A model generated the notes under the pieces. The model saw only the letters and a program-made list of their open reading frames with translations. It did not search any database and was not told where the DNA came from. A stretch of DNA of 64,000 nt, from NCBI GenBank assembly GCA_047947115.1, contig CP170459.1, positions 3,445,746 through 3,509,745 of the forward strand. Reading direction: 5' to 3'. Made by a program: the position numbers and the translations under genes. Positions 15,061 through 59,087 of this stretch are shown here, in pieces; the first letter of the stretch is position 1, and each line of letters begins with the position of its first letter. Source of the stretch: Verrucomicrobiota bacterium (GTDB lineage: Bacteria > Verrucomicrobiota > Verrucomicrobiia > Limisphaerales > AAA164-E04).

Positions 15061-15089
15061 GGGAAACATCTCAAACACCTGAGGGGCCA

Positions 15090-15215
15090 GCTCACGCTTG
15101 AACCCACTTCAAGTCCACTGCACGGGAGTAGTCATCAGGTTGCAATGGAACCGCGACCGGCGTGGGGCTCCCGGGCTTCCCGCGTTCCACCTCCGTTGCT
15201 CAGGCATGACGCAAG
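15090..15215 (+). repeat. Diverged solo copy of the 189 bp element that is tandemly arrayed at 54842..56115
   Basis: Shares GCTTGAACCCACTTC (15/15) and CCCGCGTTCC...GTTGCTCAGGC with the array unit. Block spacing is 83 nt versus 87 nt in the unit. Same orientation as the array on the + strand. Confidence 0.6.
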
Positions 15216-15337
15216 GCGGAAATTCAAGAACGAGACCCGCGTGCCGGATCATCTCTGCAAGTTTGAAATGTTGATCTTCGTTCTGGCTGATGCAAGCGGT
15301 TGCTTTTGGTTTACGGTTTTGTTAGTAATGGTCGGCA

Positions 15338-16962: not shown

Positions 16963-19695
16963 ATGACTGAAAATACAGCCATCCTGAATGGACATGAAAT
17001 CCGGTTTGAACCGGGGGATACCATTCTTACCGCCGCCGAACGCATGGGGGTCGACATACCGACCTTATGCCACGACCCTCGTCTCAAACCCGCCGGGGCT
17101 TGTCGTACCTGCCTGGTCGAAATTAAAAAGCGCCCCAAACTCGCGCCCGCCTGTGCCACAGCCTTGACGCCCGGGATGGAAATCGTCACGCACAATGAAC
17201 GTATCGAACGTCATGTGCGGACCTTGCTGGCCTTGTATCTCACCGACCATGCCGTCCACGGGGAAGCATCGATCGTCAGCGAGCAGGGTACGGGCAACAA
17301 ACTCATCGATTTGGCGCGGGCTTATGATGCGCCATTGGATTGGCCGTCGCTGGACAATATCCGTAAAGGCCGTCCTGAGGATGTGAATCCTTATGTGACG
17401 TTCCAGCCGGAAAAATGCATCGCCTGCGCGCGCTGCACCCGTTACTGCGCCGAGGTGGAAAGCGTCTCTGCCATCACCATGGCCGAACGCGGCAGTCGGA
17501 CCACGGTTTTTACCGCCGATGGAAGATCCTTGATGGACACCACCTGTGAACTGTGTGGGGGATGCATCGATACCTGTCCGACCGGTGCCATGACGGAAAA
17601 GAAACCTCTGCTCGCCCGGGTGGATTCCTCCAAAACACTGAAAAAGGTCCGCACAACCTGCAATTACTGTGGCGTAGGATGTCAGATGGATCTGAATGTC
17701 GATCCGGATGGCAATGAGGGACGCGGCAAAGTGGTCAAAGTCACGAGCCCGCCTCCAGGAACCACCACCAATGACGGCAACCTGTGTGTGAAGGGGAGAT
17801 TTGCCTACGATTTCATTGATCACAACGAACGCCTCACGACGCCTCTTGTGCGCGGGGAAGACGGTAAATTGCACGAAGCCACTTGGGATGAAGCTTATCG
17901 CAGGGCGGCAGAAGGATTGATCAAGGTGTCCACTCAGCATGGACCGAATGCCCTGGGTTTTGTTTCCTCTTCCCGGTGTACGATGGAGGAAAATTACCTG
18001 ATGCAGAAAATGTCCAGGGCGGTGTTCCACACGAACAACGTCCATCAGTGCGCGGCGACGTGACACGCTCCCACAGTGGCCGGTCTGGTCACTACCTTTG
18101 GTGCGGGTGCGATGACAAACTCGATTAATGAGATCCGAGGAGCAGATTTTCTGTTCGTGATCGGCAGCAACACGACCGAGGCTCATCCCATCATTGCGAT
18201 GGAAATGAAGCGAGCGGTGCATCGTGGCGCGAAGCTGGTGGTGGCGGATCCGAGATCGATTGATCTGACACGACTTGCTCATCGTCATCTCAAACTGACG
18301 CCAGGAACGGACGTCTGGTTGTTGAACGCCATGGCGCATGTGATCCTGGTGGAAGATCTCATTGATCCGGTTTTCATTGAGCAACACACCGAAAATTTCG
18401 AAGCCATGAGGGAAGAGGCTTTGAAATATCCTCCCGAAGAAGCGGAAAAAGTGACCGGCGTGCCTGCCGAGGACATCCGTGCGACGGCGCGTGAATACGC
18501 AACAACAGACAAGGCCGGGATCTATTACACGCTTGGCATCACGGAACACACCCATGGTACGGACAACGTCTACTGCCTGGCCAACCTGGTGCTCATGACC
18601 GGACATTTGGGAAAACCTTCCTCCGGTATGAATCCGTTGCGTGGGCAGAACAATGTTCAGGGTGCGAATGATGCGGGTGCCACACCTATTTTTTATCCGG
18701 GTTATCAACGTGTGGATGATCCGGAAGTGCAGGCCAAGTATGAGGCTGCGTGGGGAACCGAGCTTTCGCCCGAACCGGGATTGAATCTTAATGTCATGAT
18801 GAAAACCCTGGGCAAGGGCATCAAGGGGATGCTGGTCATGGGCGAGGACATCGTCATGTCCGAACCCAATACCGCCAAGCTCGAAGCGGGTTTGAACAAC
18901 ATGGAATTTCTGGTGGTACAGGACATCTTTCTGAACGAAACAGCACGTTTTGCAGATGTTGTTTTTCCTGCTTCTTGCTTCGCCGAAAAAGACGGCACCT
19001 TCACCAATTCCGAACGACGAGTTCAGCGTGTCCGTAAAGCGGTGGAACCACCAGGGGAAGCCAAGGCCGATTGGTCGATTCTGCAAAATCTTGCCAACGC
19101 ATGTGGCGCGGGGTGGAATTACCGTCATCCGTCTGAAATCTATGCCGAACTGGCACGCTATGCTCCACGGTTCAGTGGGATCAGTCATGATCGCATCGAG
19201 AAGGAGGGTGGGATTCAATGGCCTTGTCCAGATTCCTATCATCCTGGCACGACCTATCTTCACAAAGGCGGCGTGCTGAGGGGGAAGGGATTGTTTACGC
19301 CCGTCACTTATCGTCCTTCAGCTGAACTGCCAGATCAGGACTTTACCTTGATTTTGTCCACAGGGCGCACGCTGTATCACTACAATGCTGCGACCCAGAC
19401 ACGCAGGGAGCCTGGACCTCATGGTAAACAACCGGAAGCATTTGTTCAGATTCATCCAAAGGATGCGGGGCGTCGTTCCATTGAACATGGGGCGAGTGTG
19501 GAAGTGAGATCCAGGCGCGGGACCATTCAGGCAAAAGCTGTCGTGACACGGGATGTGCGTCGCGGATGTGTCTGGATGCCTTTTCATTTTGCCGAAGCCA
19601 AGGCCAATACCCTGACCAATGATGTCGGGGATGTGATTACCGGGACGGCCGAATACAAGGTCTGTGCCGTGGAAGTGGCGGCGGTCCATGTGTGA
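16963..19695 (+). CDS. fdhA: Formate dehydrogenase alpha subunit (NuoG-like Fe-S N-terminus + molybdopterin domain), selenocysteine-containing (UGA 18061..18063)
   Basis: Track ORFs 16963..18063 and 18076..19695 are in one frame. The junction reads TNNVHQCAAT-U-HAPTVAGLVTTFGAGAMTNS, the conserved FDH active-site context (compare E. coli FdhF ...CARVUHGPSVAGL). N-terminal 2Fe-2S/4Fe-4S Cys clusters; C-terminal molydopterin dinucleotide-binding region. Confidence 0.9.
18075..18093 (+). promoter_or_regulatory. SECIS hairpin of fdhA
   Basis: AGUGGCC-GGUCU-GGUCACU: 7 bp stem (one G-U) with GGUCU apical loop starting 18 nt after the UGA. This closely resembles the E. coli fdhF SECIS apical GGUC loop. 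Confidence 0.75.
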
Positions 19696-21912: not shown

Positions 21913-22854
21913 ATGACGGCCAAACCGATCACCACCTATACGTGCAAACTGACATCCGGGCAAGCGGACAAGCTCCGTGGCGTGCTGGAAGCTCAGGGTT
22001 ATGTTTTTCGAGAAGTGCCTTATTCGCAATTCGCCGGGGCCAAGGACAAACTGAATGTGGTGTATTACACCTCTGGCAAACTGGTGGTGCAGGGGAAGGG
22101 GACGGATGACTTTGTTCGTTTCGTGCTGGAACCTGAGATTCTCGGTGAAGCACGTCTGGGCTATGAAAACGTCCTGGATCCGTCGCGTCTCGATCCCCGT
22201 ATCGGTATCGATGAAAGCGGAAAAGGTGATTATTTTGGTCCGCTTTGTGTGGCGGGCGTTTATGTGAACGGGGACATGATCGATCACCTGGAACAGGCCG
22301 GTTTGATGGATTCCAAACGCATCGGCAGCGACAAACGGATCCAGGTGCTTGCCGATGTGATTCGAAAAACGCCCGGTTGTCATTACACTGTGGTACCTAT
22401 CGGGCCGGAAGCTTATAACCGCCTTCAATCCACCATGCGTTCTGTGAATGCCATCCTGGCATGGGGGCATGCACGCGTGATTGAAAACTTGATGAAGAGG
22501 AAGGACATGATGAAGCCCGCCCCGGTGCGGGCGATCAGTGATCAGTTTGCGCGTTCCAAGTCAACCGTTGCTGATGCGCTTATGGCCGGGGGACGTGAAA
22601 TCGAATTGGTTCAGCGGCATAAGGCTGAATCCGATCTGGCCGTTGCGGCCGCGTCTATTTTGGCGCGTGATGCGTTTGTCCATCGCATGCACCAGTTGTC
22701 CGAAAAGTATGGCATCGAAATCCCGAAAGGAGCCAGTCAGCGAGTCATTGAGGTCGGTGCCGAGTTGGTGAGACGACATGGTGAAGCTGTCTTGAATGAG
22801 GTTGCCAAACGACATTTCAAGACGACACAGAAAGTGTTGGATTCCGTTACCTGA
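21913..22854 (+). CDS. rnhC: Ribonuclease HIII
   Basis: Track ORF 21865..22854 trimmed to ATG 21913 (MTAKPITTYTCKL...). N-terminal TBP-like substrate-binding segment (VVYYTSGKLVVQGKG), catalytic IGIDESGKGDYFGPLCVAGV. Confidence 0.85.
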   Translation: MTAKPITTYTCKLTSGQADKLRGVLEAQGYVFREVPYSQFAGAKDKLNVVYYTSGKLVVQGKGTDDFVRFVLEPEILGEARLGYENVLDPSRLDPRIGIDESGKGDYFGPLCVAGVYVNGDMIDHLEQAGLMDSKRIGSDKRIQVLADVIRKTPGCHYTVVPIGPEAYNRLQSTMRSVNAILAWGHARVIENLMKRKDMMKPAPVRAISDQFARSKSTVADALMAGGREIELVQRHKAESDLAVAAASILARDAFVHRMHQLSEKYGIEIPKGASQRVIEVGAELVRRHGEAVLNEVAKRHFKTTQKVLDSVT

Positions 22855-22870
22855 GTTGGAAGGAGATCGT

Positions 22871-23035
22871 TTTTTTGAACCGCAGATTTCGCAGATTCAC
22901 TCAGATTTTTTGAGTAAAACTCAATGACGACGTATTTCAATCAGCCCGTAAAGCCCCGTTGTCCACCAGAGCAATCTGAAATCTTATTTCCCTGGATATA
23001 TCTGCATTAATCTGCGAAATCTGCGGTTCAAAAAA
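22871..23035. repeat. 165 bp element bounded by a perfect 27 bp inverted repeat (MITE-like or long hairpin) between convergent genes
   Basis: Left arm TTTTTTGAACCGCAGATTTCGCAGATT (22871..22897); its exact reverse complement AATCTGCGAAATCTGCGGTTCAAAAAA lies at 23009..23035; 111 bp spacer. Confidence 0.8.
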
Positions 23036-23046
23036 TCCATGCCCGT

Positions 23047-23865
23047 TCAGCGCAATCCTACCAGTTCCATGCGTCGGGCTGTTTCACGATAGGCTTCTTC
23101 CACCCATTGGACGATGCGTTTGGGGTTGGGAGAGTATTCCAGTTCGATCGAGACGACTCCATCAAAGTTAAGCTCTTTGATGGCTTGGAGGTAGGGTTCG
23201 AACTTGACCACGCCTCGTCCCGGGGGAAGGTCACCGTGCACCTTGCCGTCGCAATCGCTGATATGCACATGGATGGCATTGCCTTTGAGCTTTTTTACCT
23301 CGTTGGGTGAGGTGTCGGACAACACAAGGTGACTGATATCAATGTTGGCTTTGACGCGTGGGTGCTTGCAGTCCTTGATAAACTTGGCCATGGATTTGAC
23401 GTCGTTGAGCAGGCTCATTCGGAAGGGTTCCAGTTCCAGGGCGATGCTCACGCCCTTTTTGTCTGCGTAGTCACCGAGTTCACGGCAGGTTTCTATTGCC
23501 CAATCCCACTGTGCCTGTGGCGGGATGACTTCTCGTTGCCAGATGTATTCACCCAGCACCAGGAGGATGTTGTCCGCACCCCATTGGTTCGCGAGGTCGA
23601 TGAATTTTTTGCAGCGTTCGACATGAAAGGCTCTGACCGGATCGTTGAAATCAATCAGGCCCACTGCAACGACGGGCAACGAGATGATGGGGAGTCCAAG
23701 GGTGCGACAGGTCTTATGGATGGCTTTCGCTTCGCTTGGCTTCAGGGTGGTGGCTTCCGTGAAAATGTCCACGCAGTCAAAACCTATCCGGGCGATGTGT
23801 TCCAGTCCCGTCCGGGTGTCCATACCTGCCTGTTCGAATGCGCTGTTGATGATGCCTAGTTTCAT
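23047..23865 (-). CDS. Sugar phosphate isomerase/epimerase (xylose isomerase-like TIM barrel)
   Basis: 272 aa. IGFDCVDIF..., ALELEPF..., NIDISHL..., HVHISDCDG are typical AP-endonuclease-2/xylose-isomerase-like barrel motifs. Confidence 0.75.
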   Translation of the reverse strand: MKLGIINSAFEQAGMDTRTGLEHIARIGFDCVDIFTEATTLKPSEAKAIHKTCRTLGLPIISLPVVAVGLIDFNDPVRAFHVERCKKFIDLANQWGADNILLVLGEYIWQREVIPPQAQWDWAIETCRELGDYADKKGVSIALELEPFRMSLLNDVKSMAKFIKDCKHPRVKANIDISHLVLSDTSPNEVKKLKGNAIHVHISDCDGKVHGDLPPGRGVVKFEPYLQAIKELNFDGVVSIELEYSPNPKRIVQWVEEAYRETARRMELVGLR

Positions 23866-43063: not shown

Positions 43064-43888
43064 TCAACTCAAAACAGATTGAGGCGTAATCGCCAGTTTT
43101 AATCCATCATATGCCAGGCTCACCCCGGGCGGTAACTCGGCCTGATGAAGGTCGTGATCGTAATCGTGTGTCAAATGAGTGAACCAGGTCTGCTCCGCGC
43201 CAATGCGTCTGGCTGTGGTAAGTGCTTCGTCGTAGCACATGTGAGTCGGGTGAGGCTGGAAACGCAAAGCATCCAAAACGACCACAGGGATCCCTTGGAC
43301 CTGTTCGATGATCTTCTCAGGGACTTCTTTGCAATCGGTGAGATATGCCAGCAAGGGATTGCCTCCGATGCTGAAGATGTAGCCGAAAGAAGTCATTTTA
43401 CCGTGGGGCAACGGCGCCGGTGTGATATCAAGGTTTCCAATGGAAAACGGTCCGTCCACCGTTCTTGGGTCGGGATGAAAATACCCTTTGAAGATGGGGC
43501 CTCCATGAAAGGCGTATTCGAACACCCGTTTGATGTGTTTAAAAGCTTCCGCGCTGGCGTAGACTGGCAGGGGCTTGTCTGCTTGATGACAAAAGCGGCG
43601 GCAATCGTCCATACCCATAATATGGTCGGCGTGCGCGTGGGTGATTAATACGGCATCCACCTGCTTGATGCCCTCCCGTAATACCTGAATACGCATTTCA
43701 GGGGTCGTGTCCACCAACAGTCGCACCTGGCTGGTCTCTACATAAATGGATGGGCGTGTACGGTGGTTCTTGGGGTTGGCCAGGTACTCTTCAGGATAGT
43801 CCGCTCCGATGATGGGCACTCCCTGAGAGGTTCCGGATCCCAAAAACACGACATTTAACTGCTCATCTGTCAATTCTGTGTCTGTCAT
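43064..43888 (-). CDS. MBL-fold metallo-hydrolase (PhnP-like)
   Basis: [13 protein letters not shown]..., [16 protein letters not shown] (HxHxDH). Confidence 0.8.
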
Positions 43889-45641: not shown

Positions 45642-45671
45642 TACAACTCGGAGAAGAGCAAGCTCCCGTTT

Positions 45672-45832
45672 GCGCACACTTCAGACCTTGTGGCGTTCAG
45701 GATCCGTTAAGTGTGCGAAGGAAACGCGGTTGGTGTTCGGGAACCGAGATCTACCCGCGTTCCGTGGTTTTTTGGTTGGCGATACTTTGAGGGAGAAGTT
45801 TGGGATCGAGGTGGAACTCGTCCCTCCATTTT
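45672..45832 (+). repeat. Second diverged solo copy of the 189 bp element
   Basis: CTTCAGACCTTGTGGCGTT (18/19 versus the unit), CCCGCGTTCCG 75 nt further on (76 nt in the unit), and GGTGGAACTCGTCCCTCC versus the unit's GGTGGCACCCGTCCCTCC. Same orientation; in the 3' region of recN. Confidence 0.6.
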
Positions 45833-45840
45833 AATGAAAA

Positions 45841-45865
45841 AGCGGGAAGGCATTGCCTTCCCGCT
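45841..45865. terminator. Bidirectional intrinsic terminator between recN and the convergent LamG gene
   Basis: 11 bp stem AGCGGGAAGGC / GCCTTCCCGCT, loop ATT, followed on + by TTGTGATTTC and on - by TTTTCATT. Confidence 0.7.
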
Positions 45866-48800: not shown

Positions 48801-49215
48801 CACCATTACCGACCCCTTGGAGAAAGAAGTAGCTGTTACCCTTTTCCAGCATGCGGTTTCCGGCGCCACCCGCATCCAGAGGCACGTTGGATTTGAACCA
48901 GGTCATGATGGTCATGGCGGTGTTGATGTCGCCTCCTATGGCCGGATCATCCGGAACTTCGATGTGATTGCTTCCGTTGAAGGCAATCGCGCCGCCATCC
49001 CTTCCGACCAACCAGTGGGACGAGTCGTTGTCGAAACCAATCAAGTCTCCGTTCAATCCGTTGACGCTTTCGGAAGCAACCAAGCCGCTCGTTTCGTCGA
49101 AGTCCCATTGGGCCACGAGGCCGTCGGAGACCGCCGGCTGGGCTGCTGAAGCTGGCAAGGTATACACGCCTGCCAGAGCGACTGCAATAGCCGCATTACG
49201 TAGTGTTCGTTTCAT
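45892..49215 (-). CDS. Giant secreted LamG (concanavalin A-like lectin) repeat protein with Ig-like I-set domains and C-terminal MAM-like domain
   Basis: 1107 aa with signal peptide. Four LamG_3-like modules (recurring ...WHHIAGVFDG..., ...WQHITVVYRNGTVTLYRNG..., DELSIWQRPLS-type endings). Two Ig modules (LRYLWYRGDE...ADAGDYSVVISNDAG; VSYQWMHKGQ...ADAGAYTVEISNAKG). C-terminal FEDDFESGAPGWTHGG... Confidence 0.8.
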   Translation of the reverse strand: MKRTLRNAAIAVALAGVYTLPASAAQPAVSDGLVAQWDFDETSGLVASESVNGLNGDLIGFDNDSSHWLVGRDGGAIAFNGSNHIEVPDDPAIGGDINTAMTIMTWFKSNVPLDAGGAGNRMLEKGNSYFFLQGVGNGGMNFLIKDGGANRTATSGQSFDADVWHHIAGVFDGSQAHIYIDGELKGSVDSSGPIDDAQMTLYIGSDDSGNHFNGAMDQLLIYNRALDAAEIGTIIAGSEPEGPPSVVSHPQSAIVFEGSTLNLKASGDGAPPLRYLWYRGDEILRSQTTDTLLITDVTTADAGDYSVVISNDAGEIRSDSATVTVTPVTGLDTGRVAYWSFNESNGGTAADGSSNGNDGELLGFAGNGFTNAQVDNGLDFDGAGAFVAVADSDSLNALTGEASIAFWVNLRSYGEIEDAGNYTRESSYILRKGNHLGLRIVNDPGTVTRTFTVRAGTGNDGGGVAKGGWEINAPQGSIQLEEWQHITVVYRNGTVTLYRNGIPMADPADGTLGVPNDLPLTIGSYDDVDTALRYLNGTLDELSIWQRPISEAEVLELAGKDIAGAPVVEVQPAGQKKLEGTSTTFSVVATGLRPVSYQWMHKGQAIDGATGRQFTLTRILPADAGAYTVEISNAKGSTISEPAVLTVEELGSITSGLALHLTFDETSGTTLEDSSGNNNSATLVNFEEGAYQPGVIGGALFFDGDNDFGEVPHSDSLNLAAEATVSVWLNPVLFSGGSDFDRVIRKDVNYDFVLINGGVARVHGIGKTPYSSPGGTVDAELWQHFAYVARNGTIQWYKNGEPVGAPVKGQLGELTSLPLVLGNYEIEDDNWINRPYQGGMDDLGIWQRALSNNDILSIYANGLSGKPLSEELDPISIQSLGADGGNLTLNFFTPFTTRTHAVQAKASINDPWSDLEGLNMQDLGDGNFTTTFAAPESAGFYQIVSLPPPPVFEDDFESGAPGWTHGGSQDEWELGTPTSGPNGAASGSNAYATDLDGNFEQNSDAWLLSPVIDLTEVPIANLTFSEFHQVDTDIEFHNVSVNVLDESGNLIEQVWVMAGATNAWTDRSVRLAGANAGRKIRLEFRLVTDSVGEGAGFYIDNVVVAPN

Positions 49216-49522
49216 GCTGATAGCAGTTAGTGATTTGTAGTTCTGGATAAGAGTTTTGATTCAATCAGATTCAGGGTTGATGCGCAAGGGGAAGATTGAG
49301 CCCTCACAGGCTCCAAGCACCGGTAGGACGTGCTGTCCCCGGCGCGTCACCTTGTAGTATCCATAGGTTCGAAACAGGCTCGTTTTGGGAAGCCTGTGGT
49401 ATTTGAATACCCTCATCCATCCATCATTGCACAGGACGGGATGATCAAATCTACCTTGCCGCCCCAACGCGTGCACAGTATTGGCCTGACGTGGTGTGTT
49501 TCCTTCACTATGATCAAAGCCC

Positions 49523-51061
49523 ATGAAAAAACGGTTCTTTTGGGTGTTTCTGATGTGTTGGTGTTTTGTCGTGAAGTCTTTCGCAACGGATAAGAACTTC
49601 TACGGCATTCGAGCGGTGGATGCTCAAACCAAACGTGGAGTTCCATTGATAGCATTAAAGACCGTGCACCATGTTTCTTATTGGACGGATAGCTTGGGGT
49701 ATGTGGTGGTGGACGAACCCGGGTGGTATGATCGGGAGGTTTACTTTTATGTGAGCGGTGATGGATATGAGGTGGCCACGGATGGCTTCGGATATCAAGG
49801 AGTGCGCCTGAAACCCAGGGCTGGTCAAATCGATGAAATCGTCGTCCGACGCACTCAATTGGCTGAGAGGATGTATCGCATCACGGGTGCGGACAAATAT
49901 CGAAATGCGCAGTTGCTGGGGATTGATTTGCCTTATGAGAGTTCATGGCCGGATGGAAATGTGGTCGGCCAGGATTCCGCCCAGGCAAAGGTTTATAATG
50001 ATCGCATATATTGGTTCTGGGGAGATACGTCGATTTTTCGATATCCTTTGGGCAATTTTAGAACTGCAGGGGCTTATTCCCTGAAATCCGGGCAAGGTGG
50101 TCTTTCACCGGCTCAAGGGATTTTGTTGAACTATTTCGTTGACGAAAACGGAACGAACGCCGGGATGTGTCCGATGCCTCCGAATGGAAATCTGATTTGG
50201 ATCGATGGATTACTGGTGGTGAAAGATGCAAATGGTAAAGAAAGAATGGTGGCGCACTATTCCAAGCGAAAATCATTGTCGGAACAAATGGAACATGGCC
50301 TGGTTGTTTTTGATGATACGACCCAGCGATTCGGGTTGTTGAAAACATTCGAACAGGAAAATACTTGGCAACATCCCCGAGGGCATCCGATACGTGTTGC
50401 TTTTCCCGAGGGTGATTTCTTTGTTTTCGGAGATGTATACTATCACATCCGTGTGCCGGCTGATTGGGAAGCTGTTCAGGATCCAAACCAATATGAAAGT
50501 TTCGGACCGGACGATAGTGGTTCGTTGCATCTTCAATGGCGAAAAGGCAAACCGCCTCTGACGGTGAAACAAGAGCGAGCAGGCATTGATTCAGCTTCCA
50601 TGCCTGAGGGCGACGCCTGGTTGCAGCCGAAGGATGTGATGACAGGGATGCCCATCGTTCTCCACCGTGGCTCCGTTCGGTGGAACAAGCATCGTCAAAT
50701 GTATATCATGATTGCCAATCAGATCGGTGGTGACTCCATGTTGGGTGAGGTTTGGTATGGAGAAGCCTCACGCCCGGAAGGTCCATGGCAAAAGGTAATC
50801 AAGGTGGCAAGTCACGCAGACTATTCCTACTACAATCCAGTGCACCGTGAATTCTTCGATCAGGAAGGCGGACGGATGATTTACTTTGAAGGCACCTACG
50901 TGACGACCTTCTCAGGAAATGAGCATCCCGTGCCACGTTACGATTATAATCAATTGATGTATCGCCTGGATCTGGATCATCCGGGTTTGGCCGATGTGCG
51001 ACAGGCCTATGACGAGCGAGGCCAGAATGGTCGGGGTGTCACTTGCTCTCCGGCTGAATGA
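49523..51061 (+). CDS. Secreted hypothetical protein
   Basis: 512 aa ORF with clear signal peptide MKKRFFWVFLMCWCFVVKSFA. No catalytic motif recognised (WFWGDTS segment noted). Its 3' end overlaps the convergent gene by 23 bp. Confidence 0.55.
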   Translation: MKKRFFWVFLMCWCFVVKSFATDKNFYGIRAVDAQTKRGVPLIALKTVHHVSYWTDSLGYVVVDEPGWYDREVYFYVSGDGYEVATDGFGYQGVRLKPRAGQIDEIVVRRTQLAERMYRITGADKYRNAQLLGIDLPYESSWPDGNVVGQDSAQAKVYNDRIYWFWGDTSIFRYPLGNFRTAGAYSLKSGQGGLSPAQGILLNYFVDENGTNAGMCPMPPNGNLIWIDGLLVVKDANGKERMVAHYSKRKSLSEQMEHGLVVFDDTTQRFGLLKTFEQENTWQHPRGHPIRVAFPEGDFFVFGDVYYHIRVPADWEAVQDPNQYESFGPDDSGSLHLQWRKGKPPLTVKQERAGIDSASMPEGDAWLQPKDVMTGMPIVLHRGSVRWNKHRQMYIMIANQIGGDSMLGEVWYGEASRPEGPWQKVIKVASHADYSYYNPVHREFFDQEGGRMIYFEGTYVTTFSGNEHPVPRYDYNQLMYRLDLDHPGLADVRQAYDERGQNGRGVTCSPAE

Positions 51062-54000
51062 TCTGAAGCGGGTTGGTGAAGCGATCGTTTGTGATTTGGG
51101 AAAGTGTTCCGTCCGGCCATCGTACGTCAACTTGCTGTAATTTGTCTGGTGACGTGGCAAACAGAGTCGGGGAAGATTGGCTGAGGTAGCCGTTTCCGGC
51201 ATAGATTTCGCGAACTTCTGTTTTTCCGGAAGTGTGCCGGATGGTGATGCGTGATCCAATGCCATGCTGATTTCCCGGTCTGCCCAGGAGCCGGATGCCG
51301 AGTGGTTGCGATCCGTAAACGGCCTGGTTGATGAATGCCAACAAACGATCGTTGTTCTGGGTGGCGACCAGATCAGGCCAACCATCCGCATTCAAATCCG
51401 TAATCGCAAGACCCTTTCCATCGCCACCGACTTGAAAGCCGGTTTGTTCGAAATCCTGGATTTGAAAAACTCCATTGGAATCAAATACGCCAGAAAAACC
51501 AATGCCGCCGCGCCATAAACCGGTTTCGGGTTCCCGGGTGTAGAAGTTTTGAACGCCATAGTAGTCGAGTTGACCGTTTCCATCAAAATCGGACACCACG
51601 GTTCCATAGCCAGGCGAGGCTTGAATCAACCGAGGAAAGGCTTTCCAATCAAACGAACCCTTGCCGCCATTGATGAGGATGCCCGACTCGAAATGATTGG
51701 CCAAATACTGCCGGGCTGAATTGAGTTGGTTCACCGGGTAGATCTCATTGAGTTTTGACGATGCAAATTGACGAAAAGTCGGAAACTTCTCTCTCAACCA
51801 GGGCATGACCCCTCCTGCAAAACTCAAGCCACGAACAGGAAGGTATCCTTGGTCTCCTTTGTGAACCTCGATCAGGAAAGGGCGATTGGTTTGATCCATC
51901 GCACCATAAAGCAGGATGGCGGGATTGTTTTGACTGGCTGTTTGATACTTCGTGTTCAAACCGACGTTCATGACCACATAATCCATGTCGCCGTCTTTGT
52001 CCACATCCGCGCCGTTGATGACGTTCCACCAACCCAGGCGCCCGGAAAGCTTTCGGTTTTCGGTTTCGTCCGCCAGTTTGCCGTTGTGGTTTGCAAAGCA
52101 TTTCACTGGTCCCCATTCAAGTGTGAGCATCAGGTCGAGGGTTCCGTTGGAATCCGTGTCCGTCCAAAGCGCCGAGGTGACCATTCCGACGGACCGAAGG
52201 CCGGGGGCAATTGTGTCCGTGACATCTACGAAGCGTCCACCTTCGTTCCTCAGTAACCGGCTTTCCGGAGTGGTCGGGTAATGGGCTGGAACGACGCGTC
52301 CTCCGATGAACAGATCCAGATCTCCATCGGCATCAAAATCTGCAGCGACTGCGGGGCCGCTCGAGATTGGTTTTTGGGGGAGCACCTCTTCAGGAGCCAC
52401 GGTAAATTTGCCTTTCCCGTCATTCAGGTAAAGCCGATCATTCAAGACGGGATCTCCCGGGTTGCATTCCACACCGCCACTGGAGACGAACAAGTCAAGA
52501 TCTCCGTCCAGATCTACATCCAGCCACAAGGGCGCCATGTCTTCGTGGCGTTGGTGGGAGTTGAAAATGATTTGATTATCAGTGTCTTTTTCAAAATGTC
52601 CCGGGCTTATCTGGATAAAAAGAGCTCCGGGCTGTCCGGATGCACCCGCCAGATAGACGTCTTCGTCTCCGTCACCGTCCACATCTCCCCAGGCCATGCC
52701 TCCCCCGAGTTGCGAATGTTTGGACGGTAATAAAGGCTGACGTTGCCGGTCTTCAAAAATCGTCTCCTGATGTTTGAAATCGAGACCGATCTGCCGGCTC
52801 ATTTCGATGAAGCGTTTTCGAGGCCTTTCTGTCGTTGGAGCGGCTTGTCGGGTGGTGGTTTCTTCAATGGTGTAACGCAGGTTTGTTTGCAGGTTGGTGA
52901 AAACCTGCTGAACGCCGCTGGGCCAGTTGACGGTCAATTTGCTGATAGTCTTCTCATTTCCCAGTCCAAAATGCAGACTTGGTTCGTTGCTGGCCAGGAA
53001 ACCTGTCATGGGATTGAGCTGTCGAATCTGAGTGCCCAGCTTTTCACTCTCCACATGAACAACGGCCCCCAGGCCATACCGATTACTTGGAGTTCCTTTC
53101 AGTCGAATGGTGATACGGTTTCCGGAATGGCTGTTGTTTCTGTAAATGCCGACGGGTTCATTGAGGTCTGCGGTCACCAGGTCCAGGTCGCCGTCCCCAT
53201 CGAGGTCTCCATAGGCTGCCCCATAACTCATGCCCATATGATCCAGACCCCATGCTTTGCTGGTATCTTTAAAGATCAGGTCTCCATGGTTTTTAAAAGC
53301 GAAATTCTGTTCCCTGAGAGGCGGTGTGTCTTTCCAAAGGTCCCATTCGGTTTTTCCTATCAGCATGGAAAGTGATATGGGCATGTCGGCGTCGGTTGAC
53401 ATGCGGGATGCGCCGTTGGTGGTGAACACGTCAACCCGGCCATCGTTGTCAAAATCCGCCAACTTGATGGCCCAGGTCCAGTCGGTCGCTGCCAGGTTTG
53501 CCATGAATGCGACTTCCATGAACCGATCGGTTCCAGTATTCAGGTAAAGCGTGTTGTGCGATGTTTGACGTGGCCAGACATTTTCCAGAAACCACCGGCG
53601 ATCGCCCATTTCGCCATTGCTGATGTGCCATTTGTAATGTGTGGTGGCCATCATATCCGCACTCATGAAATCAAGCCGCCCGTCGTTGTTCAGATCGGCA
53701 CAGTCAGCACCCATGGAAGACCAGGTCGTGTAAGGCATCACATCGGCAATGACATCTGTGAAAGTCCCGTCGCCATTGTTGCGGTAAAGATGATCCGGAT
53801 CCGTGAAATCATTGCCTACATAGAGGTCGATTTTGCCATCCGAGTTGTAATCCCACCATGTAGCCGAAAAACCGTGACCGTTTTCTGTGATGCCTGCCTG
53901 GACGCTGACATCGGTGAACGTGCCGTCCCCGTTATTGCGAAACAAACGGTCAGGGCGTCCGCAGGTATCCGCAGTGTAGCTGTTGGGACCGGTCTGGCGC

Positions 54001-54776
54001 AGGTGATAATACTTTTCGTGCTCCGCTAGGATGTAGGGGCGGCCGTTTTTAAATCCAACGGGCGGTTTTTGGGGGCGGCCGCCGGGACGAACATACCGAT
54101 AGGTCAACACAAAGACATCCAGATCACCGTCATTGTCGTAATCGGCAAAAGTCGGAAAGATACTGGCATCTACCATGTCCAGACCGCAGGCAGCGGCAGA
54201 TTCGGTGAATGGTTTCCCTGCGCCCTGATTGATGAAAAGTTGATTGGGGGCGTCATAATTGCAGACATAGATATCCAGATCTCCATCGTTATCGATGTCT
54301 GCCATGGCCGTTCCCGCTCCCCATCGATCCTCACCCGATGTGTTGGATGCTTCGGTCATGTCCTTGAACTTAAAAGGTGTCTCCTGAATGTAGAGTCGAT
54401 TGGATTCAGGTGCGTTGACAAGGTAAAGGTCGGGTTTTCCATCACCATTGACATCGCCGATTGCGATTCCTCCGCATACGGAGCCTGCGTAATTCAGGTA
54501 GCTCTTGGGATGGTCCAGGATCATGTTGTTGGAGAAATGCACGCCGGTGTCATCTGGCAGTAATCGTTCGAACAATGTGGCGGCAGAGATTTTTTGCGAC
54601 CGGGGTGACAGGGGGGCTTGATGGATTGTGCCATTTGACATGTCCGCAGATTGCATGGAACTCACTGCAAGACAGCATCCAAACAGAACCCCTGCGACGA
54701 AGAACCAGTCAACCAAGCAAGAACGTTCCCCGGTGGGGAGGGGCGTGAGATGCTGCCTGGTCAAATGAAGATTCAT
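51039..54776 (-). CDS. CRTAC1-family FG-GAP/VCBS repeat protein with two ASPIC/UnbV modules
   Basis: Track ORF 51039..54905 trimmed to ATG 54776 (MNLHLTRQH...) because the first 43 codons derive from the tandem-repeat edge. Many motifs GDVNGDGKPDL, ADIDNDGDLDI, ADYDNDGDLDV...; ASPIC/UnbV-like GNRITIRLKGTPSNRYGLGAVVHV and LGIRLLGRPGNQHGIGSRITI. Confidence 0.8.
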   Translation of the reverse strand: MNLHLTRQHLTPLPTGERSCLVDWFFVAGVLFGCCLAVSSMQSADMSNGTIHQAPLSPRSQKISAATLFERLLPDDTGVHFSNNMILDHPKSYLNYAGSVCGGIAIGDVNGDGKPDLYLVNAPESNRLYIQETPFKFKDMTEASNTSGEDRWGAGTAMADIDNDGDLDIYVCNYDAPNQLFINQGAGKPFTESAAACGLDMVDASIFPTFADYDNDGDLDVFVLTYRYVRPGGRPQKPPVGFKNGRPYILAEHEKYYHLRQTGPNSYTADTCGRPDRLFRNNGDGTFTDVSVQAGITENGHGFSATWWDYNSDGKIDLYVGNDFTDPDHLYRNNGDGTFTDVIADVMPYTTWSSMGADCADLNNDGRLDFMSADMMATTHYKWHISNGEMGDRRWFLENVWPRQTSHNTLYLNTGTDRFMEVAFMANLAATDWTWAIKLADFDNDGRVDVFTTNGASRMSTDADMPISLSMLIGKTEWDLWKDTPPLREQNFAFKNHGDLIFKDTSKAWGLDHMGMSYGAAYGDLDGDGDLDLVTADLNEPVGIYRNNSHSGNRITIRLKGTPSNRYGLGAVVHVESEKLGTQIRQLNPMTGFLASNEPSLHFGLGNEKTISKLTVNWPSGVQQVFTNLQTNLRYTIEETTTRQAAPTTERPRKRFIEMSRQIGLDFKHQETIFEDRQRQPLLPSKHSQLGGGMAWGDVDGDGDEDVYLAGASGQPGALFIQISPGHFEKDTDNQIIFNSHQRHEDMAPLWLDVDLDGDLDLFVSSGGVECNPGDPVLNDRLYLNDGKGKFTVAPEEVLPQKPISSGPAVAADFDADGDLDLFIGGRVVPAHYPTTPESRLLRNEGGRFVDVTDTIAPGLRSVGMVTSALWTDTDSNGTLDLMLTLEWGPVKCFANHNGKLADETENRKLSGRLGWWNVINGADVDKDGDMDYVVMNVGLNTKYQTASQNNPAILLYGAMDQTNRPFLIEVHKGDQGYLPVRGLSFAGGVMPWLREKFPTFRQFASSKLNEIYPVNQLNSARQYLANHFESGILINGGKGSFDWKAFPRLIQASPGYGTVVSDFDGNGQLDYYGVQNFYTREPETGLWRGGIGFSGVFDSNGVFQIQDFEQTGFQVGGDGKGLAITDLNADGWPDLVATQNNDRLLAFINQAVYGSQPLGIRLLGRPGNQHGIGSRITIRHTSGKTEVREIYAGNGYLSQSSPTLFATSPDKLQQVDVRWPDGTLSQITNDRFTNPLQIIQPESK

Positions 54777-54841
54777 GATCTGGTCCGCGTATTTTATGGA
54801 GAGCATCAAGTGCAACAAGGATTTTCCGGTCAAGTCCAAGA

Positions 54842-56115
54842 AATTGGAGGGTCCAGCGCCTGCTTGAACCCACTTCGGACCTTGTGGCGTTTGAGGGCCG
54901 GTCATTGTTCCGTGGAAAAGCTGTTGGCGATCGAATCGCTGTGGTCTGCCCGCGTTCCGGTTGCTTTGCTCAGGGGGGAGGTAAAGGGGTAAGTATGGGA
55001 ACGGGGTGGCACCCGTCCCTCCGTTGTAAACAATGGAGGGTCAAGCGCCTGCTTGAACCCACTTCGGACCTTGTGGCGTTTGAGGGCCGGTCATTGTTCG
55101 GTGGAAAAGCTGTTGACGATCGAATCGCTGTGGTCTGCCCGCGTTCCGGTTGCTCTGCTCAGGCGGGTGGTAAAGGGGTAAGTATGGGAACGGGGTGGCA
55201 CCCGTCCCTCCGTTGTAAACAATGGAGGGGCAAGCGCCTGCTTGAACCCACTTCGGACCTTGTGGCGTTTGAGGGCCGGTCATTGTTCGGTGGAAAAGCT
55301 GTTGACGATCGAATCGCTGTGGTCTGCCCGCATTCCGGTTGCTTTGCTCAGGGGGGAGGTAAAGGGGTAAGTATGGGAACGGGGTGGCACCCGTCCCTCC
55401 GTTGTAAACAATGGAGGGGCAAGCGCCTGCTTGAACCCACTTCGGACCTTGGGGCGTTTGAGGGCCGGTCATTGTTCAGTGGAAAAGCTGTTGGCGATCG
55501 AATCGCTGTGTGCTGCCAGCGTTCCGGTTGCTTTGCTCAGGGGGGAGATAAAGGGGTAAGTATGGGAACGGGGTGGCACCCGTCCCTCCGTTGTAAACAA
55601 TGGAGGGGCAAGCGCCTGCTTGAACCCACTTCGGACCTTGTGGCGTTTGAGGGCCGGTCATTGTTCCGTGGAAAAGCTGTTGGCGATCGAATCGCTGTGG
55701 TCTGCCCGCGTTCCGGTTGCTTTGCTTAGGGGGGCGTAAAGGGGCAAGTATGGGAACGGGGTGGCACCCGTCCCTCCGTTGTAAACAATGGTGGGTCAAG
55801 CGCCTGCTTGAACCCACTTCGGACCTTGGGGCGTTTGAGGGCCGGTCATTGTTCTGAGGAAAAGCTGTTGGCGATCGAATCGCTGTGGTCTGCCCGCGTT
55901 CCGGTTGCTTTGCTCAGGGGGGTGGTAAAGGGGTAAGTATGGGAACGGGGTGGCACCCGTCCCGCCGTTGTAAACAATGGAGGGGCAAGCGCCTGCTTGA
56001 ACCCACTTCGGACCTTGGGGCATTTGAGGGCCGGTCATTGTTCGGTGGAAAAGCTGTTGCCGATCGAATCGCCGTGGTCTGCCCGCATTCCGCTTGGCGT
56101 TGCTCAGGCGAGGGA
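54842..56115. repeat. Tandem array, ~6.7 copies of a 189 bp hairpin-dense unit (non-coding minisatellite / candidate structured-RNA array)
   Basis: The motif GCGCCTGCTTGAACCC recurs at 54856, 55045, 55234, 55423, 55612, 55800 and 55989 (periods 189,189,189,189,188,189). By eye the copies differ at only a handful of positions each; the last copy decays after ~125 bp. Each unit holds GCGAT-CGA-ATCGC, GGGA(A)CGGG-GUGGCA-CCCGUCCC and CCCTCCGTTG-TAAA-CAATGGAGGG hairpins. Confidence 0.95.
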
Positions 56116-56126
56116 GTTCCTCATTG

Positions 56127-56164
56127 TTAAAAAGAAAAGCCCGTCCGCTGGGTAGCGGACGGGC
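56127..56164 (-). terminator. Intrinsic terminator of the LamG/PA14 gene
   Basis: 11 bp stem GCCCGTCCGCT / AGCGGACGGGC (56139..56164), loop of 4, followed on the minus strand by TTTTCTTTTT. It lies 32 nt after the stop at 56196. Confidence 0.8.
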
Positions 56165-56195: not shown

Positions 56196-59087
56196 TTACT
56201 CGGCAATGTAGAACTGGGCAGCCTGATCAGGAGACACCGAGTAAGGTGAGGTGGCTCCGGCCACTGCACTGTAACTTCCGTTGACAGTGGCAGAGGATTT
56301 CAGTGTGCCAGTGAACTCAATGACAACGCTTCCGTCTTGCAGTGCGACTGAGCTGATGGAACCGCCACCGGTGCTACCGCCACCGATTTCGGTGTCGAAG
56401 TCCCAGTGAGCCACCAGGCTTGCAATGTCAGCAGGAGAACCGCCGCCGGCGATGCCCTTCAATTCTGCTTCAGTCAATGCCTTGGAGAAGATCGCGAAGT
56501 CATCATAGACAGCGCGGTCTTTGTTGCCAAGGTCAGCTGCAGAACCAATGAACAAACCGGTCACATCGGCGGTCAGCGGATCTGCATCCACACCATCGAG
56601 GAACAATTCGCCATCAATACGGATTTCCTTTACGCCACCCTTCTTGGAGAAGGAATACAAGTGCCATTCGCTCGTGAAGTCAGGATTGTCATCGAAATCA
56701 GCGAGCGGAGCATTGATGCGTTGACCAGGAGATGCACAGCAGCCCTGGGTGTCGAAGTAGATCTGACCGTTACTCCAAGGCAAGTGAGCTTGGAATCCAC
56801 GGTTTCCGGAACCAGCGGAGTTCGCGATCCAGACTGCTGAGTTGTTGGCGATCGTGTGCTTCTTGCTCCACAATGCAACGGTGATTTCGTCGGCAGCGAA
56901 CAGCGGGTTCAACCAATCGTACTCGGTTACGATAACGGAACCGCCTTCAGGGGTCAGGTCAAGACCACGATCACCAGGTTTGCCAGAGCGTCCTTCACCA
57001 TCAGCTGTGGAGACGGCGTTGCCGATCACCAAGCCAGGGTATCCACCGACGTTGTCCAAAGTAGGACCGCCGTATGCCAGGATGCTGAAGCTCCAATCCA
57101 TGGTGGCAGGATCGCCAACAGGATCTGGATAGGTCAGCGTAACGTTCACGGTTTGACCGGAAGGCCAAAGCTCGGTTGGGGTGTAGGTCAGGGTGGCCAC
57201 TTTGCCTTCGAGGTTCAAGCTTGTTTCGACCTCGGTGCCGTTCACTGACAGGCTGGTGTTAGCATTCGTCCAAGCAACAGGACCGTTGTTGTGCACCACG
57301 GTGATGCCAGTTGTGGCAGGATTGCGGTCCGTTGCGCCATCAGCAGGAGTGATCGTGCCGAAGGAACCACCAGGAGGTGTGAGCTGAGGTGTAGCAGAGC
57401 TCAGGAACTTGCCAGGAATAGGCTGCAAGTTGGCTGCAGGGGTGTCGTCGTTGACGTTACGCCAAGCAACCTGGGCGAAGTCGCCGCCGCCGCCCTCTTT
57501 GTAGAGAACCTGGATGAAGTATTTTCTGCCCGCGGTCATGGAGATCGGGGTGAAGGTGGTTTGATCGGCACCCACTTCTAGGAAAGCGTTACAGCAACCA
57601 GGCTCTTCAGCTTGGAATTGCAGGTTGGCTTCATCGTCGTCTGTGCTGATCCACAATTCGGAAGCGTCGTCCGAACGCAGGAAGAAGTCGTATTCGCCGG
57701 TTTCTTCAGGAGTGATCCAACCTTCGATGACAGCACCATAGTTGTCGTTGCTGTCATTCGGGAAGATATCACGGCTGTTGAATGAGAAAACAGGTCCCAT
57801 GAAATCCCAGTCGTTGGGATAGCGACCATCGTCAAACAGACCGACAACAGGAGTTCCACCGATACCATACCAGGCTTTGAAGGTCAGGATGCCTTCGGTG
57901 CCTTCCACACAGGTGTAGATCTTGCCGCCTGAGTTGTCAGGGATGCTGTTTTTGGATTCATCCGTGATGTTGGAAGCAGTGACAGTGTAGCTGGAAGCTG
58001 GATTCTGCCGAGCGGTGACGATTGTAATCACACCCTTTTTGTGGGTGATGCTTTCAATGGCCACAGAGGGGTCAATGGTATAGTTACCAGGATCTGTTGC
58101 AGATGCTTCGTCCAATTTTTCGGAGAAGGTCATCGTGATGGTGTTCAGGGAACAATCGGTCTCCACAGACACGAACGCAGGATCGGTTGTATCGTTGGGA
58201 TCGGTTCCTTTTTCGAACTCGGCCAAGTTGTTGTCTCCATCGCCATCAGGATCCGTGGTGGCATCCGAAGCGTCATTGATATCGAACCCGAACTGCTCTT
58301 CCCAGTAATCAGGCAGACCATCGCTGTCAGTGTCAACAGGAGCCTGGAAGGGGGATCCACCATTGACTAAGAGTTGGATTTCTTCCTGTGTCAAAGCACC
58401 TTTGAAGATGGCGAAGTCGTCAATGATTCCATCGGGCTGATTTTCGTCACTTGCTGCACCGATGAACAATTGAGTCACGTCGGTGGAGAGTGGTGTTGCA
58501 TCGTCAGACTCAATCAGGATTTGACCGTCGACATAAACTGTTTTGCGCCCTTCGTCTTTGACAAAAGCGTAGTGATGCCATGTTTCGGCCCAGTCAATGT
58601 CCGGAGCAGCATTGACACGTTGTGTGCCTGCTGCACAACAGCCCATGGTGTCAAAGTAAATGTTCCCGTTGGACCATGGAATGTGGAACTGAAAATGACG
58701 CCCTTGAGTTTCTGATACTGCCCAGAAGCTACTGCTGTCGATATTGGAGAAGTTTTTCTGCCACACGACGATGGATACTTGATCCTCCTCAGCTGCGAGA
58801 TTCATGGGGTTGTCTTCGCCTTCCGCTTCAAGCAAAAGGTAACCGGCGTTCGCCTCGGAGACATCAAAACCGTTGCCGCCTCCGTTAGGACGACCATCGC
58901 TCACGACTTGAGCGTCTCCGACGATGATTCCGGTGTATTTGCCGTCGGCCGAACGGAGTTCATCCCCGTTTGGTTGCGAATTAAAGTCCCATCCGGTCAC
59001 CAATTGGGCCGCATGGACTTGCGCTGTTGTAGCTCCAGCAGAAGCCAATAAGGCGACTGCGAGCCATTTTGTTAATTTATTTCTCAT
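56196..59087 (-). CDS. Giant secreted LamG / PA14 / Ig-like protein with thrombospondin-type-3-like Ca-binding linker
   Basis: 963 aa with signal peptide. Two LamG_3-like modules (WHHYAFVKDEGRKTVYVDG; WHLYSFSKKGGVKEIRIDG). DTDSDGLPDYWEEQFGFD...DPDGDGDNNLAEFEKGTDPND. PA14-like segment (GILTFKAWYGIGG...YDFFLRSDDASELWIS...RKYFIQVLYKEGGGGDFAQVAW). Confidence 0.8.
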   Translation of the reverse strand: MRNKLTKWLAVALLASAGATTAQVHAAQLVTGWDFNSQPNGDELRSADGKYTGIIVGDAQVVSDGRPNGGGNGFDVSEANAGYLLLEAEGEDNPMNLAAEEDQVSIVVWQKNFSNIDSSSFWAVSETQGRHFQFHIPWSNGNIYFDTMGCCAAGTQRVNAAPDIDWAETWHHYAFVKDEGRKTVYVDGQILIESDDATPLSTDVTQLFIGAASDENQPDGIIDDFAIFKGALTQEEIQLLVNGGSPFQAPVDTDSDGLPDYWEEQFGFDINDASDATTDPDGDGDNNLAEFEKGTDPNDTTDPAFVSVETDCSLNTITMTFSEKLDEASATDPGNYTIDPSVAIESITHKKGVITIVTARQNPASSYTVTASNITDESKNSIPDNSGGKIYTCVEGTEGILTFKAWYGIGGTPVVGLFDDGRYPNDWDFMGPVFSFNSRDIFPNDSNDNYGAVIEGWITPEETGEYDFFLRSDDASELWISTDDDEANLQFQAEEPGCCNAFLEVGADQTTFTPISMTAGRKYFIQVLYKEGGGGDFAQVAWRNVNDDTPAANLQPIPGKFLSSATPQLTPPGGSFGTITPADGATDRNPATTGITVVHNNGPVAWTNANTSLSVNGTEVETSLNLEGKVATLTYTPTELWPSGQTVNVTLTYPDPVGDPATMDWSFSILAYGGPTLDNVGGYPGLVIGNAVSTADGEGRSGKPGDRGLDLTPEGGSVIVTEYDWLNPLFAADEITVALWSKKHTIANNSAVWIANSAGSGNRGFQAHLPWSNGQIYFDTQGCCASPGQRINAPLADFDDNPDFTSEWHLYSFSKKGGVKEIRIDGELFLDGVDADPLTADVTGLFIGSAADLGNKDRAVYDDFAIFSKALTEAELKGIAGGGSPADIASLVAHWDFDTEIGGGSTGGGSISSVALQDGSVVIEFTGTLKSSATVNGSYSAVAGATSPYSVSPDQAAQFYIAE

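Follow-up and report, generated by a model that had tools for sequence, protein, structure and literature searches.

A 189-nucleotide tandem array in a Verrucomicrobiota genome is probably a local amplification of a dispersed intergenic repeat

How a bacterial chromosome comes to carry almost seven head-to-tail copies of one non-coding unit between two large genes is the question raised by a 64,000-nucleotide (nt) stretch of a Verrucomicrobiota bacterium (assembly GCA_047947115.1, contig CP170459.1, positions 3,445,746 to 3,509,745), referred to below as the window. The two genes, here called gene A and gene B, are both read on the minus strand, and the units between them measure about 189 nt. 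A preliminary description, made from the letters alone, had dealt with this array by itself. The array itself is real, but its unit is not specific to the locus: judged by its sequence relatives in the window and in other Verrucomicrobiota, the unit is a member of an undescribed, dispersed, non-coding intergenic family of about 186 nt that occurs in several Verrucomicrobiota lineages. We consider it probable that the array arose by head-to-tail amplification of one copy of this structured repeat family.

Tandem Repeats Finder reports one array (54845..56108, period 189, 6.7 copies, 95% matches, 0% indels, score 2274), which a covariance model (R1) together with the unit alignment extends to 54846..56132 and divides into six full units and one older, internally deleted unit (Table 1). 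Anchors along the array are spaced by 189, 189, 189, 189, 188 and 189 nt, the fifth unit thus being 188 nt long, and the two methods together bear out the head-to-tail arrangement and the period first described. Unit segments of 29 to 32 nt, of which two were tested, occur 6-7 times in the window and not once in 100 shuffles. The full units, which had looked highly similar by eye, are indeed 95-98% alike, and each of them scores 167-184 bits with R1 on the plus strand versus 15-22 bits on the minus strand; the deletion in the seventh unit takes away its 3' hairpin. The units abut each other without spacers and no cas genes are found among the neighbours, so that the array is not CRISPR-like, as had already been stated.

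Table 1. Positions in the window of the array, of the other family copies and of the flanking features.
Feature	Position	Strand	Basis or remark
Six full tandem units	54846..55978	+	starts 54846, 55035, 55224, 55413, 55602, 55790
Seventh unit, older, diverged, with a 34-nt internal deletion	55979..56132	+	R1 96 bits, unit alignment
Single complete copy	45652..45837	+	nhmmer E=1e-33, R1 181.8 bits
Third copy, 3' end degenerate	15080..15268	+	nhmmer E=7e-16, R1 52 bits
Gene A, 963-aa (amino acid) Laminin_G_3 / PA14 / Big_5 secreted-type protein	56196..59087	-	Pfam
Intrinsic terminator of gene A	56129..56164	-	11-bp stem (56164..56139) including 9 G-C pairs; the T tail runs to about 56129; adjoins the array at its 3' end
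Gene B, 1245-aa FG-GAP / ASPIC-UnbV protein	51039..54776	-	Pfam, homologue length
Putative promoter of gene B	54791..54818	-	-35 TTGTTG 54818..54813, 16-nt spacer, -10 TAAAAT 54796..54791

Three loci of the family lie in the window, all on the plus strand. The single complete copy starts 11 nt past the stop codon of a recN-like gene (45641), precedes a hairpin (about 45842..45864) serving the convergent gene, and has in the related contig L001 an orthologue that is 92% identical; the third copy lies between a gene of the DHDPS family (stop at 15060) and a NuoF-like gene (start at 15338), both neighbours being assigned by Pfam. Beyond the window, a degenerate 21-base pattern taken from the consensus of the window and the related contig L004 recovered five loci in three Verrucomicrobiota metagenome-assembled genomes (MAGs), among them L008 and L011, which are full collinear elements of about 186 nt, and an nhmmer profile and the covariance model added partial or diverged copies in L006, L015 and L013. 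Homologues are present outside the source strain, in diverged form, and the length of the array is polymorphic among relatives. Exact 22-mer scans of a genome and a metagenome collection, sets that do not include the source genome and its close relatives, gave no match, and neither did a second degenerate pattern in the metagenome collection, a scan of viral contigs, or BLASTN against plasmids and phages. The case illustrates that a satellite which appears unique can be explained via diverged single copies elsewhere. In the informative tandem-gene contexts, three copies are co-directional with their neighbours and one, the array, is antisense, numbers too small to be used.

No Rfam 15 family was hit at the gathering score in the whole window, and nothing but noise came from scans of the array, of the 45.6-kb copy and of L011 at E values up to 10, which agrees with the earlier statement that the unit matches no known RNA family. 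Resemblances to hammerhead, twister, T-box, tRNA-like and 6S RNAs were considered, and none of them found support in the Rfam scans at E values up to 10. Searches of the literature on Verrucomicrobia repeats or RNA motifs and on bacterial tandem small RNA (sRNA) arrays brought up no description of the element.

The history of the site could be followed on orthologous contigs reached through homologues of gene B (the identities given in brackets are amino acid identities of its product, by BLASTP). The terminator of gene A is common to all orthologous sites, and it is the content between this terminator and the promoter of gene B that differs. No element is found in L007 (64%), with its 138-nt intergenic region, and no unit in L006 (70%; 195-nt intergenic region) or L005 (80%), while unrelated sequence occupies the place in L003 (81%). 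Exactly one diverged unit, followed by the gene A terminator, is present in L004 (83%); L001/L002 (97%) contain one full unit and a truncated one, or 1.7 copies, and the window contains six full units and the same truncated unit. Copy numbers of 0, 1, 1.7 and 6.7 across orthologous sites point to a lineage-specific resident element that was amplified locally at a later time. The state resembles that of a variable-number tandem repeat (VNTR) or a mycobacterial interspersed repetitive unit (MIRU), with 1 (L004), 1.7 (L001/L002) and 6.7 copies (window) at one site, bearing in mind that metagenome assemblies may collapse repeats.

The resident copy has not drifted freely. Between the window and L004, identity is 48% at 485 four-fold degenerate sites of gene B, a value that corresponds to saturation, versus 79% for the element, and no alignment is possible for the 20 nt that separate promoter and element; this comparison indicates that the element is conserved far above the neutral rate at its orthologous site. 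The same comparison with L001 (four-fold sites 94%, elements 90-92%) is uninformative.

What is conserved can be read from the anatomy of the element. Its ends form short inverted repeats, (A)CAAC-GGAGGG ... CCCTCC-GTTG(T), the end sequence being GGAGGGGCAAGC..., and between them lie a highly conserved 5' block, GGAGGGGCAAGCUCCUGCUUGAACCCACUUCA (the 32-nt 5' block is near-invariant across distant MAGs), a block GGAAACGC ... CUUCCCGCGUUCC followed by a U-rich tract, a block AAGGGG.AAGUAUGGG, and a 3' hairpin of the form GGGR-NNNG / GUGGAA / CNNN-YCCC followed by UCC. Three local hairpins (5', middle and 3') can be drawn, and proposed long-range pairings comprise ACUUC/GAAGU, CCUU/AAGG, the conserved GGAAACGC/GCGUUCC, which precedes the U-rich tract, and the terminal GGAGGG/CCCUCC; in some copies U-rich tracts come after two conserved helices. 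For six sequences on the plus strand, RNAalifold gives 43 pairs, 10 of them compensated; 88% of the cells pair versus 37-56% with slid partners, and double changes fall at 10 pairs versus 1-5 with slid partners and 2/500 shuffles. With nine sequences, 77% of the cells pair versus 37-53%. All double changes are located in local helices, namely the three hairpins, with 2-5 compensated pairs each and clearly lower controls in these 6-9 sequences, and one weak U/G-rich helix. The reverse strand reaches 32 pairs with 1 compensated, and the plus strand is for this reason the better candidate for folding. In L013, the 5' hairpin gives way to a different and unrelated hairpin in this position. When the variable centre of each copy was compared with its flanks, guide-RNA-like complementarity did not exceed that of shuffles.

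Both hairpins singled out in the preliminary description exist, and one of them is backed by compensatory changes across homologues. The hairpin GGGAACGGG-GUGGCA-CCCGUCCC falls within a unit, and CCCUCCGUUG-UAAA-CAAUGGAGGG spans the junction of two units, where it overlaps the true 3' hairpin by CCC. This overlap had been called switch-like, an interpretation that we do not retain: the 3' terminal inverted repeat of one unit pairs there with the 5' one of the next, which is possible only in head-to-tail units, and the resulting competition stems from that arrangement and is not evidence of a riboswitch-like device. In single copies, about 175 nt separate the two end segments, whose pairing could close the molecule.

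We also would like to mention that the distantly related Puniceicoccaceae MAG loci L010 (about 230..362) and L012 (about 4266..4400) share a repeat of about 125 nt with several (G)GCGTAG motifs, a GTAG-tagged hairpin, CCCTCC, a 17-nt loop and the 5' motif of the family. They carry the same order of 3' hairpin, CCCUCC, loop, GGAGGGG and 5' hairpin as the array, for which no explanation was found, and from its sequence the repeat looks like an array junction, or else like the element in circularly permuted form. About 100 nt downstream of it follows a second common block, which is about 40 nt long.

The plus strand of the array is also rich in G (GC skew about +0.2, versus +0.04 to +0.10 over the whole window). 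Each full unit contains a canonical G-quadruplex motif on this strand, for example GGGGGG-N7-GGGG-N7-GGG-N3-GGGG at 55352..55391, and the L004 copy has a near-equivalent G run with a first loop of 9 nt. The motif is missing from most members of the family, and a G-quadruplex was therefore rejected as its function.

The dispersed copies further show a pattern of gain and loss. Among relatives with 80-97% identical proteins, the element is present in some and absent from others at four intergenic regions, namely upstream of gene B, downstream of recN, at the equivalent of window positions 49215..49523 (filled in L015 only) and upstream of a P-II gene (filled in L013 only). Three insertions lie directly against the A-tract in the terminator of a convergent gene. 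A 784-nt non-coding element bounded by terminal inverted repeats of 38 nt (GACCGGAGGGGCAAGCTCTCCCGACTTGTCGCATGCGC; complementarity 84%) is found in L013 (11715..12498) and also in L003 (about 15478..16261) and L014; its first 14 nt are the family terminus, the element starting with GGAGGGGCAAGCTC and the repeats beginning with GACCGGAGGGGCAAGCTC. In a sister lineage (L013 and L003) it sits between the recN stop codon and the terminator, at the exact site of the 186-nt copy of the window, and it may be a larger relative or a parent-derived element. [quoted passage not shown]

Variation inside the array is of another nature. The base preceding GTGG/GAGG, which lies immediately 5' to the conserved GGAAA block, is in turn C, G, G, A, C, T and G at 54911, 55100, 55289, 55478, 55667, 55855 and 56044, and the CAGG..TAAAGG patch varies between units, both as previously noticed and as seen again in the unit alignment. 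The clustering of variation and the near-invariance then ascribed to the hairpin cores are not supported as a sign of selection within the array, as differences are spread over both paired and unpaired columns: 7 of the 18 variable columns are in predicted paired positions and mostly break pairs. The substitutions within the array look like neutral, recent divergence, and selection on the extra copies appears not to be detectable. As for the column before GUGGAAA, with its four states in units that are 95-98% identical, the chance of at least three hits at any one of 190 sites is about 0.07 by a rough Poisson estimate; the column may be a mutational hot spot or under selection, and it is left unexplained. 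The six full units share variants in mosaic fashion, the left flank of the first unit (AAGAAATT), itself A-rich, resembles the likewise A-rich inter-unit junction (GTAAACAAT), and at least two copies predate the split from L001, because the 34-nt deletion of the last unit is common to both.

These observations can be combined into a scheme in which the element would come and go among intergenic regions, often beside terminators, as elements of the enterobacterial repetitive intergenic consensus (ERIC), BOX and MITE types do. Constraint on sequence and structure would then maintain resident copies, the most likely reason being that the plus-strand transcript or the single-stranded DNA must fold; a role at the RNA level is the most likely function of the family in our view, and we prefer it to a purely selfish nature or a mixture of both. 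The copy beside gene B, still single in the relative with 83% identity, may first have been duplicated by illegitimate recombination between the short A-rich sequences flanking it, after which unequal crossing-over or gene conversion could have enlarged the array to six full copies and an old truncated one. The array as such is probably without function beyond that of its unit.

Several results weigh against this scheme. As regards mobility, the two ends, (A)CAACGGAGGG and CCCTCCGTTG(T), match over 9-12 nt only and beyond this share hairpin architecture alone; filled and empty pairs, including the recN-terminator region, show no target-site duplication, apart from a possible TAAT at one site; no parent insertion sequence (IS) was identified, and neither a transposase, nor a REP-associated tyrosine transposase (RAYT; REP, repetitive extragenic palindrome), nor a reverse transcriptase lies near any copy, the neighbours being ordinary chromosomal genes. 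The copies are old and constrained: paralogues are 64-75% identical, as diverged within one genome as between MAGs, a pattern that does not resemble a MITE with recent activity and comes closer to a family of old, selected RNA genes. As regards folding and expression, the structure was derived from the same alignment of only about nine independent sequences, the long-range helices are built from invariant sequence and have no compensatory support among 6-9 sequences, and a consensus scan found no promoter-like (sigma-70-like) site upstream of any copy. The array had been called hairpin-dense, yet its folding energy is unexceptional for its base composition (z-scores against dinucleotide shuffles of -0.4 on the plus and -1.3 on the minus strand for one unit, and of -1.7 and -2.7 for two units). 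Finally, the 1.7-copy state of L001/L002 could be due to assembly collapse.

In a first alternative, the family would consist of ordinary, vertically inherited, paralogous genes for trans-acting sRNAs of about 120-190 nt on the plus strand, the array being an adaptive dosage amplification, a multi-unit precursor or a sponge, in the manner of the tandem sRNA arrays NsiR1 or LhrC. Purifying selection in situ, covarying hairpins, the better plus-strand fit, the near-invariant 32-nt 5' block and old paralogue divergence would all suit such genes, as would the U-rich tract after the GGAAACGC/GCGUUCC helix and, in some copies, the UCCAUUUU that comes after the 3' hairpin. We nevertheless regard it as unlikely, given that the copies have no conserved promoter upstream, that individual array units could not be made for want of a usable U tail, that variation within the array does not spare paired positions, and that presence/absence at four regions, with an inverted-repeat element of the same terminus at the same site, would be unusual for sRNA genes. 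Mobility and RNA function might also be united in an unrecognised class of mobile structured RNA of Verrucomicrobiota, about 186 nt long and made up of a 5' stem-loop that is conserved, a central arm that varies and a 3' hairpin, which would either serve or be carried by a transposition or recombination system encoded elsewhere in the genome, or else be a new multi-copy regulatory RNA; the six-unit array would then amplify RNA dosage. This is unlikely.

Other explanations concern the array rather than the family. Should it be a neutral minisatellite without a functional unit, or its copy number an assembly artefact, one would understand the neutral-looking variation, the mere 1.7 copies in the contigs of the closest relative and the absence of the exact 22-mer from both large DNA collections; the conservation of the unit, however, exceeds the neutral rate by far and extends to distant genomes, the four-fold-site comparison already contradicting a neutral unit, and each unit has its own combination of substitutions, with one 1-nt deletion, which is not the pattern of duplicated reads, so that we find this quite improbable. 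Very improbable is a cis-acting DNA element for gene B, made of protein-binding, activating or insulating sites whose copy number would tune the promoter: the array does lie about 30 nt upstream of the -35 box and its copy number varies between close strains, but other copies are found where unrelated genes (recN-like, DHDPS-like) have their 3' ends, as well as in further contexts, gene B orthologues keep their promoter without any element, and covariation points to folding and not to duplex recognition. Next to no credence can be given to a protein-coding repeat or its remnant, although 189 nt equal 63 codons, two frames of the consensus unit are open and an open reading frame (ORF) of 281 codons for amino acids (54884..55729, plus strand) runs through 4.5 units. 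A protein-coding tandem repeat was rejected: the 188-nt unit breaks the frame, the array has no Pfam hit, a chimeric six-frame protein query of the unit, run against 5.8 billion proteins, found no homologue, stops interrupt every frame in five of nine family copies and no frame is open in all nine, and the conserved blocks are contiguous, not three-periodic.

If the array is read as an amplified member of a dispersed repeat family, its closest analogues are ERIC/RU (repeat unit) elements and MITEs for the unit and MIRU/BOX VNTRs for the array, with REP/RAYT systems as more distant relatives in kind. The ERIC or IRU (intergenic repeat unit) and related enterobacterial RU elements measure 127-168 bp and are thought to act or to be selected at the RNA level (PMC2229807, PMC2759123). 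Like the present family they are non-coding, intergenic, 100-200 nt long and of imperfect inverted-repeat character, and they are conserved across genera far above neutral DNA at loci that differ between strains; differently from them, the family described here resides in Verrucomicrobiota, shares no sequence similarity with them, has ends matching over 9-12 nt and asymmetric internal blocks, and can form a long tandem array. MITEs have in common with it the small size, the lack of an ORF, inverted-repeat ends (short ones in the present family), intergenic location, presence/absence polymorphism and a larger element with the same terminus, but not the missing target-site duplication, the missing parent IS, the old and diverged copies, the conserved internal blocks or the covarying hairpins. 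A MITE of Porphyromonas gingivalis contains a minisatellite (PMC4596501), a precedent for tandem repeats tied to a MITE. In that case the minisatellite is internal, whereas here the whole element is the tandem unit. MIRU-VNTR and the boxB of the pneumococcal BOX element are dispersed intergenic repeats, some loci of which are head-to-tail arrays with copy numbers varying between strains, as here. Their units measure 40-100 bp in contrast to 189 bp, MIRUs are often translationally coupled in operons, unlike this unit, and the present unit carries a multi-hairpin fold.

REP sequences and bacterial interspersed mosaic elements (BIMEs) are mobilised by RAYT, and GTAG-tagged palindromes have been reported in the verrucomicrobium Opitutus terrae (PMC3733652). 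[quoted passage not shown] Nor is the GTAG tag general, the 3' hairpin being preceded by GTAT, GTTT or GCAT in the window, L004, L008 and L011 copies (GTAT or GTTT in those of the window) and by GTAG in L010 and L012 only. Head-to-tail structured non-coding units are also known from the tandem sRNA arrays NsiR1 of Nostoc and LhrC1-5 of Listeria and from ToxI-type repeats. Their units come with a promoter and terminator of their own or with a processing site, and in ToxI with an adjacent toxin gene, none of which was found at the array. To our knowledge, good catalogues of small interspersed repeats exist for Proteobacteria and Firmicutes, and hardly any for the Planctomycetes-Verrucomicrobia-Chlamydiae (PVC) superphylum. 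The family, which is absent from Rfam, unites conservation far above the neutral rate at an orthologous site, covarying hairpins and mobile-like turnover with strain-specific tandem amplification, and this combination qualifies it well as a candidate, either for a new structured non-coding RNA or for a non-autonomous mobile element that is likewise new; the array itself is likely to be of use as a VNTR marker, and it poses a hazard when these genomes are assembled.

The order on the minus strand is gene A, its terminator, the array and gene B. The most plausible start of gene B is the ATG at 54776 (MNLHL..., then a signal-anchor-like segment), the closest homologue, 97% identical, also having 1245 aa, and with this start the gap between array and gene is 67-70 nt, close to the roughly 65 nt first given. 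A promoter-like sequence TTGTKG-N16-18-TAnAAT, 14-16 nt before the ATG of gene B, is kept in the orthologues read in that frame, including those without an element; it is a putative promoter, read as a phylogenetic footprint from the orthologous intergenic regions, and a stricter consensus promoter scan did not report it. The suggestion that the array is a giant leader is not supported, as this putative conserved promoter sits between array and gene B, also in the 138-nt element-less intergenic region, and would place the array upstream of about -45. Exact-protein look-ups found the product of neither flanking gene on record. Gene B is adjoined by an ORF of 512 aa without Pfam match (49523..51061, plus strand), which has counterparts of 493-540 aa, likewise without Pfam hits, in related contigs that extend past the 3' end of gene B, and which sits within a cluster of FG-GAP/ASPIC, Laminin_G_3 and PSCyt/DUF1501 genes.

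Elsewhere in the window, two ORFs in the same frame (16963..19695, plus strand; Fe-S domains and molybdopterin oxidoreductase) are parted only by an in-frame TGA (18061..18063) that is followed by H-A-P-T-V-A-G-L. We take this to be the classic selenocysteine site of formate dehydrogenase alpha subunits, and the two ORFs are for this reason probably one selenoprotein gene. A long imperfect inverted repeat (22852..23054), whose 68-nt arms are 75% complementary and enclose a 67-nt spacer, takes up a convergent intergenic region; it abounds in CGCAGATTT motifs and is unrelated to the 186-nt family. Divergent from recN, a gene of the metallo-beta-lactamase fold (43064..43888, minus strand) has orthologues that carry the precomputed Pfam annotation Anti-Pycsar_Apyc1.

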